Shown here in pieces: positions 4,000-62,748 of a DNA stretch of 64,000 nucleotides. A program made the translations under genes and the position numbers. Position 1 is the stretch's first letter. Every line of letters begins with the position of its first letter. The DNA is taken from assembly GCF_056746865.1 (NCBI RefSeq), contig NZ_CM163382.1. One strand, given 5' to 3'. Below the pieces are notes generated by a model. It was not told the origin of the DNA. It made no database searches and saw nothing but the letters and a program-made list of their open reading frames with translations.

Positions 4000-4165
4000 T
4001 TACTTTTAGTCGCTTTATTGCAGGTGAGATTTGCGCGGCATCAACGGTAACACTTAAGTAACAACATTTAAATAATGTTTATAAATTATATTCTAATTTT
4101 AGAAACATTATGATTTCGTTGATTAATTATAGGGTTATTAGAAATGAAGGGATTTTTAGCATATT

Positions 4166-4192
4166 GACCTGGCGGCAGCAGTCCGCCAGGTC
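4166..4192 (-). terminator. Perfect 10-bp inverted repeat hairpin (GACCTGGCGG-N7-CCGCCAGGTC) just downstream of yojI stop
   Basis: Inverted repeat read directly; no clean U-tract follows on either strand, so function as terminator is uncertain. Confidence 0.35.
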
Positions 4193-4204
4193 AGCGTCGT
4201 AATA

Positions 4205-5848
4205 TTATGCCGTCCGGGCAACGGCATCACGCGAAGCGGCATCGCGCTCTTCGCCCGTCAGCTCGCTAAGTTGCCCGTTGCGCATTTCCAGCAGGCGGTC
4301 GGCGTGGATAAAGTAATGATCATCATGACTGATGGCGAAAATCGTTTTACCCATCTCCTGCATCAGCGGCAGCAACACCTGATAAAACTCACGACGGAAG
4401 TGTGGGTCCTGATCCGCCGCCCATTCATCCAGCAGGATAATATCGCGTTCTTCTGCCAGCGCCAGCAACAGCGCGACGCGTTTTTTCTGCCCTTTCGATA
4501 ACTTCAGGTTAACAATACGCCCGTTGCTTAACTCAAGCTTATGAGCCATTTTCAGTTGCGCCAGCCACTTCTCAATCAGTTGCGGGTTAGCGGGTTGACC
4601 CTCCGGCCCCAGCAGTTGATCGAACAGCCAGACATCGGTAAACACTGCCGAAAACAGTTTGCGATAATCTTCCGGTTGTTCGCCGCTGACAGGTTTGCCA
4701 TCCAGCAAGATTTCGCCGCTTTGTGGCTGATACAAGCCCGTCAGCAACATCGCCAGCGTCGATTTTCCACTACCGTTGCCACCAATCAGAAACAGCAGCT
4801 CGCCACGTTTAATGGTGAGGTTAATCGGCCCAACGGAAAACGCATTATCCTGATAAGCAAACGTCACGTTACGCAGCTCCAGCGTTTGCCAGTTGGGAAA
4901 CGCCTGCGGGCGTGGAAACTCTGCTTTGAAAGGTGCGAGCGCGAATTTGTTCAGCTTGTTAAACGCCACCTGCGCCGTCAGCAGCGTCGGTAATGCGCCA
5001 ACCGCCGAAAGCAGCGGCGTACGCAGGAATAACAGCGTCAACGAATAGGTCGCGGCAACGTTGGTATCAGCCCAACCGAGACTGTTCGCCATCCAGAACA
5101 CCAGGCCGATTGCGCCCAGCATCATGATGTTTGACCAGTTCACGGCACTAAGATGGAAGGTGTCTGCGCGAATAATATGATGGCGATACTCTTGCGCATC
5201 AGGAATGTAGAGGTTGTTAAACACATACTCGGCGCGTTCCCGGTTCAGAGTCAGCTCTTTGCGCCCTTCGAGTACGGTTTGAAAATCCGTGTACAGCTTG
5301 TCTTCGGTTTCACGCAGGGTCGCCATATGTTTGTACACCCGCGCCACCAGCACAAAACCGCCCCAGATGGTGACTGCCATCCAGATAGCCGTTACCAGCA
5401 ACATTTTGCCCGACAGCATCCACAAGTACGCCGCGGAACCGATAGTGAGGATGATCCCCTGCACCAGTTCCGGCAGACGCACAAAAGCAATGGTGATATT
5501 GCGCACATCGCTGGTTAATCCCGCCAGCAACGAAGCGCTACCAAGTTGTTCAATGCGCTCGACGTGGGTATCCAGAATCCGCTTGATAAATTCGCTACGC
5601 AGTCGGTAAACGAAGTGATGGCCCAGCGTAGTAAGCGCCAGTTGCGATCCGAGAGTGACAGCCATCAACAGTAGCAATAATCCCAGAAACTCCGGCAACA
5701 CCAGCAGACTGGTATCTGCCGTTTCGATAAGACGCTGATTGATAAAAGCAATTAAGCCAATGCCTAATGCCGCACTGGCGAGGCTTAGCGCCATCACACT
5801 GATAAATGGCCAGCGATACTGCCGCCAGACAAGTACAAGAAGTTCCAT
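4205..5848 (-). CDS. yojI: ABC transporter, fused permease/ATP-binding (microcin J25 efflux type), 547 aa
   Basis: N-terminal TM domain plus Walker [13 protein letters not shown] signature LSKGQKKR, Walker B ILLDEW in translation. Confidence 0.88.
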
Positions 5849-5923
5849 GCAGAAAACCCGGACAATGAATTACAGCCCGCAGTTTAAACATCTTCGCGCG
5901 CACAGCAATAATAATTCTTATTT

Positions 5924-6574
5924 TTATTCTTTTTTACCTGCCTGACGGAATGTCAGGTTGTAGCGGCAGTCGGTGGTGAGTGGATGAAACCCCGCTTTCA
6001 ACGGTTGAATGCCATGATAAAACAGCCGCGATTCACCGCCCCATACCACCACATCGCCATGTTCCAACAACAAACGTTTTAGCGGATCATTTCGTTTCAG
6101 GCCGCCAAATTGAAAAATCGCGGGTAAGCCCAGAGAAACAGAAACAATCGGCGCGCGCAGATCCGGTTCGTCTTTATCCTGATGCAGCGACAGTTTCGCG
6201 CCAGGAGCGTAGCGGTTGATAAGACAAGCATCTGGCTGGAAATCTGGATAGCCCGCCGCCGTAGCCGCACGTTGACATAAATCATGAAAGCTTTGTGGCA
6301 TGGCGGGCCACGGTTTATTTGTTTGCGGATCAATGGGCGAATAGAGATAACCTTGCCGATGGGTCGTCCAGCCCAGATGCCCACAGTTGGTCATCGCCAC
6401 CGACATGGTATATCCGCCTGGAGTGACCATCTGGCGAAACGGCGACTGGCTGGCAACATCATTAATATCGCGGATCAGTTGCTCCGCAGCGTTAAAAGTA
6501 AAACGCCGTAAAATTACCGCACCAGCCGCCAGAGGCTCTTGCCACGGTTCAGCATCGGCAAACAGATCCAACAT
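5924..6574 (-). CDS. alkB: AlkB, Fe(II)/2-oxoglutarate-dependent DNA/RNA demethylase (216 aa)
   Basis: Translation MLDLFADAEPWQEPLAAGAVILRRF...; start codon overlaps ada stop (TAATG). Confidence 0.92.
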   Translation of the reverse strand: MLDLFADAEPWQEPLAAGAVILRRFTFNAAEQLIRDINDVASQSPFRQMVTPGGYTMSVAMTNCGHLGWTTHRQGYLYSPIDPQTNKPWPAMPQSFHDLCQRAATAAGYPDFQPDACLINRYAPGAKLSLHQDKDEPDLRAPIVSVSLGLPAIFQFGGLKRNDPLKRLLLEHGDVVVWGGESRLFYHGIQPLKAGFHPLTTDCRYNLTFRQAGKKE

Positions 6575-57625: not shown

Positions 57626-58585
57626 ATGACCGAATCAACAACCTCCTCCCCGCATGATGCGGTGTTTAAAACCTTTATGTTCACACCCGAAACCGCTCGG
57701 GATTTTCTGGAAATACATCTACCAGAGCCGCTGCGCAAGCTTTGCAACCTGCAAACTTTACGCCTGGAACCCACCAGCTTTATTGAAAAAAGTTTACGCG
57801 CTTACTACTCGGATGTTTTGTGGTCTGTGGAAACCAGCGACGGTGAAGGCTATATCTACTGCGTGATTGAACATCAAAGCTCTGCAGAAAAGAATATGGC
57901 TTTTCGGCTAATGCGCTATGCCACTGCCGCCATGCAGCGTCACCTGGATAAAGGCTATGACAGAGTTCCGCTGGTGGTGCCATTGCTGTTTTATCATGGC
58001 GAAACCTCGCCCTACCCGTACTCACTCAACTGGCTGGATGAGTTTGACGATCCGCAACTTGCCCGGCAGTTGTACACCGAAGCTTTTCCGTTGGTGGATA
58101 TCACCATCGTACCTGACGATGAGATCATGCAACATCGGCGTATAGCTCTGCTGGAACTGATTCAAAAGCATATTCGCGACCGCGATTTAATCGGTATGGT
58201 CGACAGGATCACCACGCTTTTGGTTAGAGGCTTCACTAATGACAGCCAGCTACAAACGCTGTTTAATTATCTGCTGCAATGCGGCGATACCTCCCGTTTC
58301 ACCCGCTTTATTCAGGAGATTGCCGAACGTTCACCACTACAAAAGGAGAGATTAATGACTATTGCTGAACGGCTGCGGCAGGAAGGACATCAAATTGGCT
58401 GGCAGGAAGGTAAAATTGAAGGTTGGCAGGAGGGGAAATTGGAGGGGTTGCAGAAAGGCAAAGTAGAAGGTATGCATGAACAAGCCATTAAAATTGCCTT
58501 GCGCATGCTGGAACAGGGCTTTGAACGTGAGATTGTGCTGGCGACAACCCAACTCACTGATGCTGATATTCCGAACGGTCATTAA
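57626..58585 (+). CDS. rpnE: RpnE (YfaD), Rpn/YhgA-like recombination-promoting nuclease, PD-(D/E)xK transposase_31 family (319 aa)
   Basis: Translation [28 protein letters not shown]...YCVIEHQSS...; C-terminal repeat region [15 protein letters not shown]. Confidence 0.85.
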
Positions 58586-58597
58586 AAGGAGAGATTA

Positions 58598-58795
58598 ATG
58601 ACTATTGCTGAACGGCTACGGCAGGAAGGACATCAAATTGGCTGGCAGGAGGGTAAATTAGAAGGTTTGCAGGAAGGCATGCATGAACAAGCCATTAAAA
58701 TTGCTTTGCGCATGCTGGAACAGGGCATTGATCGTGACCTGGTGCTCGCGGCCACCCAGCTAAGCGAAGCCGATCTGGCAGCGAATAACCACTAA
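58598..58795 (+). CDS. ypaA: YpaA, small protein (65 aa) that is a tandem duplicate of the RpnE C-terminal module
   Basis: Translation [43 protein letters not shown]... nearly identical to the last ~77 aa of RpnE; own AAGGAGAG Shine-Dalgarno. Confidence 0.8.
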   Translation: MTIAERLRQEGHQIGWQEGKLEGLQEGMHEQAIKIALRMLEQGIDRDLVLAATQLSEADLAANNH

Positions 58796-59655: not shown

Positions 59656-60897
59656 TTAATGATGTGCCACGTCGGTCTGCGCAACAGTGCGATTTACACG
59701 CAGAGTGAAAATAATCAGCGAACCGATGACCGCCACCGCTGCCAGCGTCAGTAATCCCGCCGCATCGCTGGCAAACAACGTTTCTGCTTTCACGCGCAGG
59801 ATCGGGGCAATAAACCCACCCACTGCACCAAACAGGTTTACAAAACCAATCCCCGCCGCCAGCGCCGTACCGGAAAGCAGTTGTGTCGGCATCGTCCAGA
59901 ACACCGGCTGCACGGCAATAAACCCGATGGCTGCAACACACAGCGCTACGATCGCCAGTACTGGAGAAAGCAGCCCGGAGAGACCAATACCAATGCCTGC
60001 CGCCAGTAATGTCAGCGCCGCGACATTACGCCGTTCGCCGGTTTTATCGGAATAGCGCGGAATAAGCCAGGTCCCAAACAAGGCCGCGACCCACGGAATG
60101 GCGGTGACCACCGACGCCGTAAAGCCCACTTTTGTCCCCAACAATGCAGCAACCTGCGTCGGCAGGAAGAAAATTAATCCGTAAACCGCCACCTGAATGG
60201 TCAGGTAGATAATCGCCAGTTGCCAGACTCGCCCATTACGCAGCGCATCGCTCAGTCGAGAAGTCACTTTCTGTTGTTCTTCACTTGCCAGTTGGTTGAT
60301 AAGCAACGTTTTTTCTTCTTTACTCAGAAAACGTGCCTGCTCCGGCGTGTCATCAAGCCAAAAGAATGTGAATACCCCAGCGCCGACTGCCAGCAATCCT
60401 TCAATCACAAACATCCAGAACCAGCCGGGATGCCCCATAAATCCATGCATCTCCAGCAGCGCGCCGGAAAGCGGTGATCCCAGTGTTAACGCCAACGGTG
60501 CGCCCATATAGAACAGCCCCATAATGCTGGCGCGATTACGCTGCGGAAACCATTGCGAGGTGAGATAAATCATACCAGGGAAGAACCCGGCCTCCGCAGC
60601 ACCAAGCAGAGTGCGAACGATCAGAAATTTCGCTTCAGTATCGGCCCATGCCATGGCTGCCGAAAGAAATCCCCACAGCAGTGTTGTCGTACCAATCCAG
60701 GTTCTGGCCCCCAGTTTGCGCATCAAAAGATTCGCCGGAACACCCAGAAACGCATATACCACAAAGAAAATGCCTGCTCCCAGCGCATAAGCTTCATTAC
60801 TCAGCCCGGTATCAATCTGGTAGGTTTGTTTGGCAAAACCGATATTCGAACGGTCGAGAAACGCCAGCACATACAGCGCCAACTTGACATCCTCCAC
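59656..60897 (-). CDS. rhmT: L-rhamnonate MFS transporter RhmT, apparently 5'-truncated; ORF begins at a GTG inside the IS end
   Basis: Translation starts [24 protein letters not shown]..., lacking the usual cytoplasmic N-terminus and part of TM1; frame continues upstream into IS sequence. Confidence 0.75.
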
Positions 60898-62635
60898 GCC
60901 CTGAAGAACGTGGATCCCTGCTACGTTCAGGCTGTCGCCTGAATCATTTCGGTGGGTTCCTGCTTCAACGAGCGGCCTGACTGCACCATCTCTCCACAGG
61001 CAAGAACGGCGTGCCCCGCCGCTAAAATGTTACGAGCGCCATTTACATCGGCGTTCGCTGTATATCCACATACCTGGCATCTGAATTGACTTTGTGACAG
61101 GCGATTTTCTTTCGCAGTATGACCACAGCACGCGCAACGCTGGCTTGTGTACGCTGGCGGAACAGCAAGCAACTGACCGCCACTCCAGAGCTGCTTGTAC
61201 TCAAGCTGGCGGCGCATTTCATACCAGCCCTGATCCAGTATCGAACGGTTTAAACCTGATTTTGCCCGGACATTGCGCCCCGGCTGGCTGAGCGTACCCG
61301 CTGCTGACTTTGACATGTTGCTGACCTTCAAATCCTCAATGACTATCATTGCGTGGTTTTTGCTGACGGTCGTTGTGACTTTGTGAAGGTAGTCCCTGCG
61401 GATATTTGCGATACGGGAATGCAGTCGCTGTATTTTGCGTTTCTGCTTCTGCCAGTTGTTGCTGAATTTGACCCTGCGGCTTAACTGTCGCTGAAGTCTC
61501 GCCAGCTTCTTCTGGTTTTTCTGAAAACTGTTTACAGGCTCAAAGACTGTGCCATCTGACAGCGTGGCGAGTTTAGCCACGCCAGCATCCAGCCCGACCA
61601 TTGATGCTGAAGGGTGAACCGGAGTTGATACTTCACTTTCTGTCTGAATACTGATGTACCACTTACCGCAGGACTGGCTGACAGTGACATTTTTTACAAC
61701 ACCCGTGACCTGACGGCTGTTCCGGTAGCGCATCCAGCCCAGTTTCGGCAGAAAAATACGGCTGTTTTCCTGATCGAGCTTAACGCCCTGCGGATAGCGG
61801 AATGCATCATTCTGTCCCCGCTTTTTGAATCGGGGAAAAGCAGCCCGATTCTGGAAGAAGTTTTTGTAAGCCCGCTCAAGGTCTTTCAGTGACTGTTGCA
61901 ATGGCTGTGAGGGCGAATCTTTAAGCCATTGCGTTTCAGTGGCGTTTTTCCACTCAACCAGCCAGGAAGCCATTTTCCCGTAAGGGATGTATTTATTACC
62001 GGCCTCATGATTCTCATTCTGAAGCGCCAGAGCGCGATTGAAAACGAAACGACATGCGCCTGCGAAGCGCCTCATTTCACACTCCTGTTGACCACCTGGT
62101 CTTAACTGGAATTTAAATGCCTGTAATCGTTTCACAGGTCAAATGATACTTTGGTCTATGAAAAAAGAAACCGATATCCGGCGTGGAAGGCATTGTGTTT
62201 TCCTGATGCATGTTCACCTGGTCTTTGTCACCAAATACCGACGCCAGATTTTTGACCATGACGCGACAGAAAAACTACGCACTTACTTTTCAAATGTATG
62301 TGCTGATTTTGAAGCTGAACTGGTTGAAATGGATGGCGAACCAGATCACGTCCATTTGTTAATTAACTATCCTCCCAAACTGGCGATATCCAGTCTGGTA
62401 AACAGCCTCAAAGGCGTATCGGGTAGGTTACTGCGACGAGATCGACCAGATATTGCAGTCAGGTATTACTACAAAGGCGTTTTGTGGAGTCCTGGCTATT
62501 TTGCCAGTAGCTGCGGAGGTGCGCCAATATCCGTCATCCGCCAATACATTGAACAACAGCAAACACCTGGTCAGGTGGAAAACCGCGCCTTATATCCCCG
62601 CCCTGAAGGACGGGGTTTTACAGCGCACTGGATAA
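60887..62635 (-). mobile_element. IS200/IS605-family insertion sequence (~1.7 kb) with divergent tnpB and tnpA; boundaries approximate
   Basis: TnpB and Y1-transposase ORFs; both ends carry the same-orientation 17-nt motif CGCCCTGAAG(A/G)ACG(T/G)GG (60897-60913 and 62599-62615) embedded in imperfect hairpins. Confidence 0.75.
60927..62135 (-). CDS. tnpB: TnpB (OrfB), RuvC-like RNA-guided nuclease of the IS200/IS605 family (402 aa)
   Basis: Translation [37 protein letters not shown]..., C-terminal zinc-finger CACCGH...CQVCG and [10 protein letters not shown]. Confidence 0.88.
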
Positions 62636-62748
62636 AGTCATGGACTCAACAACCTCAATCCAGCCATGCTCACTGGCGATGTCCTGGCCGTTTAACCAAC
62701 GGCGCAGCATATTCAGTGCCATCATTGCGCACACTTCCTGACGGATAG
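62158..62748 (+). CDS. tnpA: IS200-like Y1 (HuH) transposase TnpA; 3' end uncertain, ORF reads through the element end into yfaY antisense
   Basis: Translation MKKETDIRRGRHCVFLMHVHLVFVTKYRRQ...HVHLL (HuH)...YYYKGVLWSPGYFASSCGGAPISVIRQYIEQQ; ORF is ~50 codons longer than typical TnpA. Confidence 0.65.
   Translation: MKKETDIRRGRHCVFLMHVHLVFVTKYRRQIFDHDATEKLRTYFSNVCADFEAELVEMDGEPDHVHLLINYPPKLAISSLVNSLKGVSGRLLRRDRPDIAVRYYYKGVLWSPGYFASSCGGAPISVIRQYIEQQQTPGQVENRALYPRPEGRGFTAHWIKSWTQQPQSSHAHWRCPGRLTNGAAYSVPSLRTLPDG

Follow-up and report, generated by a model that had tools for sequence, protein, structure and literature searches.

A probable TnpB omega-RNA module at the right end of an IS609-like element in Escherichia coli

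A stretch of 64,000 nucleotides of Escherichia coli DNA (NCBI RefSeq assembly GCF_056746865.1, contig NZ_CM163382.1; hereafter the window) was analysed around the 3′ end of a tnpB gene. The interval 61043 to 60884 on the minus strand is very probably the omega-RNA (right-end RNA, reRNA) module of an IS609-like insertion sequence (IS) of the IS200/IS605 type. The module lies on the tnpB strand, overlaps both the tnpB 3′ end and the right end (RE) of the element, and stops exactly at the transposon end, where locus-specific flank begins. Its conserved fold is backed by compensatory change, and its cognate TnpB carries a RuvC D-E-D triad and a zinc finger. A first-pass annotation, made from the letters of the window, had placed a putative omega RNA on this strand at the tnpB 3′ end, and the proposal was borne out by a covariance-model match, by covariation and by synonymous constraint. 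Module boundaries, covarying structure, nucleotide constraint on the overlapped codons, the arrangement of the TTAT target motif and the integrity of TnpB were observed directly.

TnpB omega RNAs have been an established class since 2021, and the module is a standard member of a kind already described: an IS609 scaffold and its TTAT transposon-adjacent motif (TAM) are published, and RefSeq names the protein an RNA-guided endonuclease. The gain consists of exact coordinates, a fold supported by covariation and a predicted target, TTAT plus GTTGGCGCTGTATGTG, for one E. coli IS609 copy; the biological addition is small. Of modest value is a secondary-structure model for the IS609/ISAba30 clade, with a RAGATH-18-like core within the reading frame. 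The case also indicates that reading raw sequence alone can correctly place a TnpB guide RNA. Coordinates are collected in Table 1.

Table 1. Positions of the element, its genes and the predicted RNA features in the window (LE, left end; ORF, open reading frame)
Feature	Position	Strand	Basis
IS609-like IS200/IS605 element, 1748 bp	60884-62631	minus orientation	E. coli insertion alignments and uninterrupted rhmT site
Putative omega-RNA (reRNA) scaffold	60884-61043	minus	covariance model R1, covariation, reduced synonymous change
Helix 1, candidate long-range helix CAUUUU/AGGAUG, ahead of UCAA and guide	61024-61029 with 60888-60893	minus	RNAalifold, single-sequence fold
Helix 2, hairpin CGGCG-GGGCA-CGCCG, within codons A372-V377	61007-61021	minus	covariation
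Helices 3 and 4, basal stem CCUGU/GCAGG around a short hairpin; RAGATH-18-like core CCUGUGGAG...CGUUGAAGCAGGAA	60957-61000	minus	Rfam sub-threshold match, covariation
Helix 5, hairpin UUCAGGC-GACA-GCCUGAA (DNA TTCAGGC-GACA-GCCTGAA), across the tnpB stop codon	60926-60943	minus	covariation
Helix 6, RE subterminal hairpin CCACGUUC-UUCA-GGGCGUGG (DNA CCACGTTC-TTCA-GGGCGTGG)	60894-60913	minus	covariation
Predicted guide, canonical 16 nt, GUUGGCGCUGUAUGUG (DNA GTTGGCGCTGTATGTG)	60868-60883	minus	first bases past RE; rhmT coding-strand sequence
TTAT target motif, presumed TAM, flanking LE, in the last yfaY codons	62632-62635	minus	LE flanks, uninterrupted rhmT, PMC12781874
tnpB (insQ), 402 aa, GTG start	60927-62135	minus	ORF, ISDra2 TnpB alignment, NCBIfam guided_TnpB
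tnpA (Y1 HUH transposase), divergent from tnpB	62143-62631	plus	NCBIfam transpos_IS200, TnpA structure alignments

Boundaries and structure of the scaffold

The ends of the element were determined by aligning the window with five other E. coli insertions (beside yeaQ, yfeD, yedK and ydcO, and one on a plasmid) and with the uninterrupted rhmT of strain NU14 (L007). LE starts with CCAGTGCG at 62631 and is directly preceded by TTAT. RE terminates in ...GGAGGATGTCAA at 60884 on the minus strand, and the sequence beyond differs from locus to locus among these 6 E. coli insertions. A scan of 100,044 species genomes yielded 52 loci related to the element; in about 45 of the 52, from other genera, nucleotide similarity to the tnpB 3′ region stops at the same base, after GGAGGATGTCAA. 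Exceptions to this terminus among all aligned insertions were one TCAC and one TTTAA, the rest ending in ...GGAGGATGTCAA, and the 16 nt past RE were unrelated between loci. The arrangement observed was TTAT, LE, RE with its final TCAA, and flank.

Read on the minus strand, the order of the element is LE, tnpA (in reverse), tnpB and RE, and its position is between yfaV (rhmT) and yfaY. Its Y1 HUH TnpA, the hairpins in LE and RE, insertion 3′ of a tetranucleotide and the lack of a target duplication make it an IS609-like member of IS200/IS605. The 2.5-kb stretch of the window was found identical (100%) in 189 of 5426 complete E. coli genomes, among them strain 042, where RefSeq lists insQ ('RNA-guided endonuclease InsQ/TnpB family protein') and a partial IS200/IS605 tnpA at the locus.

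A covariance-model search of the tnpB 3′ end, a check suggested in the first-pass annotation, was carried out with a model (R1) of 34 sequences, none from Escherichia or Citrobacter, comprising 31 genomic loci and three scaffolds from PMC12781874. In the 64-kb window, R1 matched 60884-61043 on the minus strand over its full length (model positions 1-160 of 160) with 178.6 bits and an E-value of 8e-45, which is far beyond chance; the sole other match was the LE hairpin (E 0.03). The matched scaffold extends over tnpB codons ~365-402 and the 43 nt of non-coding RE and is free of disruptive changes relative to the family model. Conserved structure begins at ~61029 and the model match at 61043. 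The interval first proposed, ~60890-61080, was right as to module and location and too long at its upper limit, 61080 lying in ordinary coding sequence.

For the structure, 49 distinct sequences were aligned, the published IS609 and ISAba30 scaffolds included; a conserved block of ~150 nt is followed by unrelated sequence. Six helices (35 pairs) were derived from RNAalifold and manual inspection. Across the 49 sequences, 93.1% of cells are paired, against 42-50% after the partners were slid by 1-3 columns. Two-sided changes occur in 21 of the 35 pairs (111 cells), and 0 of 500 shuffles reached any of the five measures used. Folding the window scaffold as a single sequence yielded the same helices. 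In helix 2, 96% of cells are paired and all 5 pairs have two-sided changes; its closing pair, at two codon wobble positions, is A-U in 27 sequences and G-C in 19. The short hairpin inside the basal stem likewise has two-sided changes in 5 of 5 pairs. For helices 5 and 6 the paired fractions are 84% and 91%, each with two-sided changes in 5 of 7 pairs, and helix 5 is also part of the single-sequence minimum-energy fold. Beyond the RE hairpin the scaffold ends in the invariant tail GGAGGAUGUCAA.

An imperfect hairpin, CTGAAGAACGT...ACGTTCAG, had initially been named as part of the scaffold. The motif is present (60901-60911 and 60923-60930), yet the two halves do not form a conserved pairing: in the 49 sequences 68.6% of cells are paired, and the covariation of 0.092 (shuffle mean 0.097) was reached by 343 of 500 shuffles. 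The halves of this 60901-60930 motif belong to two separate conserved hairpins, at 60926-60943 and 60894-60913.

For synonymous change, 18-19 full-length homologues were aligned by codon, and the fraction of identical amino acids encoded by different codons was taken. This fraction is 0.435 over codons 1-360 and 0.195 over codons 368-402. Many codons from 379 on are invariant in nucleotides, yet amino-acid identity is not higher there.

It is very improbable that the conservation reflects DNA-level signals of RE alone, namely a single-stranded hairpin and the TCAA cleavage site for TnpA, with no RNA function. Such signals would agree with the near-twin of the RE hairpin that is present in LE. 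IS200/IS605 TnpA is moreover said, from work attributed to Barabas et al. 2008, to recognise subterminal hairpins. Four more compensating helices are found 45-145 nt inside tnpB, however, where TnpA has no known need of them, and the covarying wobble positions, the halving of synonymous change over the last ~35 codons and the similarity to the RAGATH-18, HgcC and sotRNA families likewise speak for an RNA.

That the hairpins serve as a terminator or 3′-untranslated-region stabiliser of tnpB, or provide truncated rhmT with a new 5′ leader and start, is scarcely credible. Neither hairpin is followed by a U-tract, and a terminator scan was negative there. The chimeric yfaV (rhmT) ORF in RefSeq does begin inside RE, and tnpB and rhmT are both on the minus strand, as a leader would need; the module, however, is conserved beside unrelated flanks in dozens of loci and therefore cannot have evolved to serve rhmT.

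TnpB, guide and target

TnpB aligned over its full length with ISDra2 TnpB (8bf8/8exa) with an E-value of 8e-55 and scored 388 bits against NCBIfam guided_TnpB (cutoff 100). The first-pass annotation had judged its RuvC/zinc-finger C-terminus to be complete and had advised alignment of the RuvC residues with ISDra2 TnpB. In this alignment no catalytic residue was lost: the triad D183/E267/D363 corresponds to D191/E278/D361 of ISDra2, and the zinc-finger CxxC pairs C334/C337 and C353/C356 are both kept. The window and the loci L002-L004 and L006 each have an intact tnpB ORF. Among E. coli tnpB copies the ratio of non-synonymous to synonymous substitution rates (dN/dS; codons 1-365) is 0.2-0.28, and TnpB is therefore under purifying selection.

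The 16-nt length of the guide was taken over from ISDra2. Uninterrupted rhmT (NU14) reads CCGTTTAT followed by GTTGGCGCTGTATGTG, so that the guide-matching bases, which are identical, stand directly 3′ of TTAT. This uninterrupted site occurs in 3829 of the 5426 complete E. coli genomes. A guide derived from rhmT had been placed earlier at about 60870-60895. Its source was correct and its coordinates were not: because the element ends at 60884 and not at ~60895, the guide runs from 60883 to 60868, and the bases 60884-60895, formerly counted as guide, are the invariant tail of the scaffold.

In well-aligned insertions from several genera, LE is flanked by TTAT (13), TTAC (3) or TTAG (1). The same tetranucleotide, TTAT, was used as the IS609 TAM in PMC12781874 (Table S2). 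Judged from the alignments, the predicted TAM coincides with the target motif of the transposon and stands ahead of the guide-matching sequence at the uninterrupted site. A self-target search found no TTAT plus guide-matching sequence anywhere in the window. The sole guide match there is the junction of RE and guide, with TCAA where TTAT would be.

Transcription, processing, assembly into a ribonucleoprotein (RNP), the 16-nt guide length and cleavage are all inferred from ISDra2 and other characterised relatives. The analogy as regards RNA excision, TnpB binding and guided cleavage goes back to TnpBs reportedly characterised by Karvelis (2021), Altae-Tran (2021) and Meers (2023). On this basis, minus-strand transcription through the tnpB 3′ end would yield an RNA with a scaffold of ~150 nt, from 61043/61029 to 60884. 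The omega RNA would be excised from the tnpB transcript and bound by TnpB, a protein with intact RuvC triad and zinc finger. The scaffold would fold into five local helices enclosed by one long-range helix and end in GGAGGAUGUCAA; the guide would be the ~16 nt beyond it, GUUGGCGCUGUAUGUG, which belong to the adjacent rhmT. The complex would then cut double-stranded DNA carrying TTAT plus GTTGGCGCTGTATGTG, that is, the uninterrupted rhmT allele or the excision joint (TTAT joined to GTTGGCGC). The resident copy would be protected because the TCAA of RE stands where TTAT would precede the guide-matching sequence.

Activity of the E. coli copy and related systems

Several points weigh against the proposed omega-RNA mechanism. 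The start codon of tnpB is GTG, with no obvious Shine-Dalgarno sequence ahead of it, and the -10-like box upstream reads TATCAT, where other genera have TATAAT; TnpB levels may therefore be low. A consensus scan for sigma-70-like promoters found none on the minus strand from 60600 to 62700. The two sites that it gave were on the plus strand and as frequent as expected by chance; the scan is uninformative either way. The single-sequence folding z-score is just -1.9, and covariation was therefore used as evidence instead. The long-range helix CAUUUU/AGGAUG is 96% paired with one-sided changes only; it appears compatible with the data and is not proven, because both sides are almost invariant. 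The RE hairpin, as DNA, is presumably the TnpA recognition site, so its covariation alone is no proof of a role as RNA. The tnpA stop codon is lost in E. coli, and excision, the event that TnpB is thought to counteract, may therefore no longer occur. Finally, a related IS609 TnpB was assayed for trans-cleavage only, and SfaTnpB, not IS609, was the most active of nine candidates (PMC12781874).

Several of these points would fit a module that is a true omega-RNA gene by descent but, in its E. coli copy, a relic in decay and largely silent, with TnpB barely translated, TnpA crippled and no functional RNP. This is a possibility to be taken into account, albeit the less expected one. Besides the GTG and weakened -10-like box, as opposed to ATG and TATAAT in other genera, and the outcome of the promoter scan, it draws on the tnpA gene, which has lost its stop and which RefSeq lists as a pseudogene wherever an annotated chromosomal copy in E. 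coli retains it (L001-L005), on the identical insertion fixed in 189 genomes and on the fact that most E. coli carry IS609 at fixed positions of the chromosome. Against a relic stand the intact tnpB ORF of the window, L002-L004 and L006 at the dN/dS given above, the retention of every catalytic and zinc-binding residue of TnpB, a scaffold free of disruptive changes relative to the family model, and a transcript that K-12 RNA sequencing (RNA-seq) reportedly has at the tnpB 3′ end (PMC4615843).

In other genera, a perfect TATAAT stands 7 nt ahead of the tnpB ATG with no Shine-Dalgarno sequence (compare 62136-62160 on the minus strand of the window), which suggests a leaderless tnpB mRNA there. 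TATCAT plus GTG, as in the E. coli copies, would be a poor fit for leaderless translation. The start codons of tnpA and tnpB, on opposite strands, are just 7-22 nt apart. The tnpB 3′ end plus RE sequence was found in 5355 of the 5426 complete E. coli genomes, at a median of 2 places per genome, and IS609 copies are often at fixed sites, for example beside ydcO. Given this near-universal presence, often at fixed sites, IS609 and its guide-RNA module appear mostly immobile in E. coli.

The tnpA ORF starts at 62143/62158. TnpA spans positions 2-126 of the 126-position NCBIfam transpos_IS200 model (147 bits), has an HVH motif and aligns with the TnpA structures of IS608, ISDra2 and Sulfolobus through the catalytic-tyrosine motif QYIEQQ. 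Homologues from Serratia, Morganella, Klebsiella and Pantoea end in QTPG followed by a stop codon. In the Escherichia copies (the window; L008, Escherichia sp.) this stop is absent and the sequence continues QTPGQV..., with the codon CAG; in the window, the ORF runs on through the LE hairpin into yfaY, to 62748. The lost stop is probably why every tnpA-retaining copy carries a partial flag in RefSeq. Truncation of tnpA at the LE side, as suggested by the RefSeq 'missing C-terminus' flag, was rejected, since LE is complete and it is the stop codon that was lost.

The best characterised relative is ISDra2 of Deinococcus radiodurans (8bf8, 8exa, 8h1j). Its TnpB is alike end to end and shares the D-E-D triad and the zinc finger; its RNA likewise overlaps the tnpB 3′ end and RE, its guide is the flank and its TAM is the transposon target motif. 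As printed in a table of PMC12781874, the 3′ end of the ISDra2 RNA reads GAGAAUC, a hairpin with a UUUA loop and GAGGUUCAA; that of the window reads GGGAUC, a hairpin with a UUCA loop and GAGGAUGUCAA. The common 3′ plan is thus G-GAAUC, a UUNA-loop hairpin, GAGG(A)U(G)UCAA and guide. Both scaffolds also have a UGGAG...GAAG internal module. The two systems differ in that the TAM is TTAT in the window and TTGAT in ISDra2, the upstream helix sequences cannot be aligned by eye, and tnpA and tnpB are divergent in the window, unlike in ISDra2. Activity has been demonstrated for ISDra2 and is putative for the window copy.

An 'IS609 omega-RNA scaffold' ending in GGAGGAUGUCAA, with a TTAT TAM, has been published together with ISAba30 scaffolds (PMC12781874; Nucleic Acids Research (NAR) 2026, Tables S1-S3). 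That IS609 is a metagenome-derived relative, distinct from the copy on the E. coli chromosome. Identity to the window is 81.5% over 200 nt for the scaffold and 84.5% for TnpB; scaffold and TAM were predicted in that paper, with no secondary-structure or covariation analysis. The differences among the window, IS609 and ISAba30 scaffolds are largely compensatory within helices.

Matches to known RNA families stayed below the Rfam gathering thresholds and are therefore treated as resemblances, not memberships. RAGATH-18 (RF03064) matched 60957-61000 on the minus strand with 29.5 bits (E 0.01; gathering score 44.9), and homologues gave 29.8-30.9 bits, also sub-threshold. HgcC (RF00062) matched 60871-60994 on the minus strand with 20.1 bits (22-32 in homologues; threshold 50), and sot0042 (RF02656) scored 14 bits on the minus strand of the window (threshold 88). 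Among the homologues scanned, several have HgcC and RAGATH-18 matches at the corresponding position, and two have one to sot0042.

RAGATH-18 is the core of the IS607 TnpB reRNAs (ISFba1; Ren et al. 2024, PMC11061315), and the window core CCUGUGGAG...CGUUGAAGCAGGAA equals the basal part of its consensus base for base. Among solved structures, the window TnpB matches ISDra2 TnpB and an AI-designed relative best, and the next distinct family is ISFba1 TnpB (8iaz; E 1e-45). The apical 44 positions of the RAGATH-18 model are, however, reduced to 17 nt in the window, the module lies inside the tnpB frame and not downstream of tnpB as in IS607, and the transposase partner is a Y1 TnpA instead of a serine recombinase. 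RAGATH-18 has been said to co-occur solely with IS607 TnpB (PMC11061315). A core of this type (UGGAG ... GAAG-N-AGGAA) is recognisable, shortened and in frame, in the Y1-type IS609 clade and, by eye, in ISDra2.

The sotRNAs and HgcC are sense transcripts overlapping tnpB 3′ ends, with an example in E. coli K-12 RNA-seq (Gomes-Filho et al. 2015, PMC4615843). They resemble the module in position and strand relative to tnpB and in a terminal hairpin with a UUCA tetraloop; the families were defined in archaea, and the window scores far below their thresholds.

The replaced rhm segment and neighbouring genes

The element does not occupy a simple insertion site: LE adjoins a native TTAT in the last yfaY codons and RE another at rhmT codon ~22, both of them exact target sites. 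Missing are the 2.35 kb that separate these sites in other strains and hold the rhmT 5′ end, rhmD and rhmR/yfaX (60884-62635 of the window compared with NU14 4035-6383). No single-site intermediate, that is, RE with the yfaY-distal flank or the rhmT 5′ part with LE, was found in the 5426 complete E. coli genomes. An origin of the rhmD/rhmR deletion by recombination between two IS copies is neither supported nor excluded.

It is improbable that the element itself made the deletion, for example through a one-ended strand transfer in which TnpA would link RE to a TTAT located downstream on that strand, and that TnpB cuts incoming intact rhmT. If so, guide-directed cutting of wild-type rhmT (~70% of E. 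coli) would lock the deletion against repair by recombination. The TTAT-to-TTAT replacement of rhmD/rhmR is of modest value for studies of IS200/IS605-mediated deletions.

RefSeq annotates yfaV (rhmT) as an intact 424-aa transporter of the major facilitator superfamily, the first 16 codons of which come from the right end of the IS (60884-60930 on the minus strand). In this chimeric ORF, whose start lies across the tnpB stop, the 22 native N-terminal residues are replaced. The loss of rhmD and rhmR presumably disrupts the rhamnonate pathway in any case.

The interval 57626-58795 on the plus strand, upstream of rhmA, holds rpnE, annotated as an ISNCY family transposase or recombination-promoting nuclease, and after it a short duplicated fragment of the rpnE C-terminus, a pseudogene in RefSeq.

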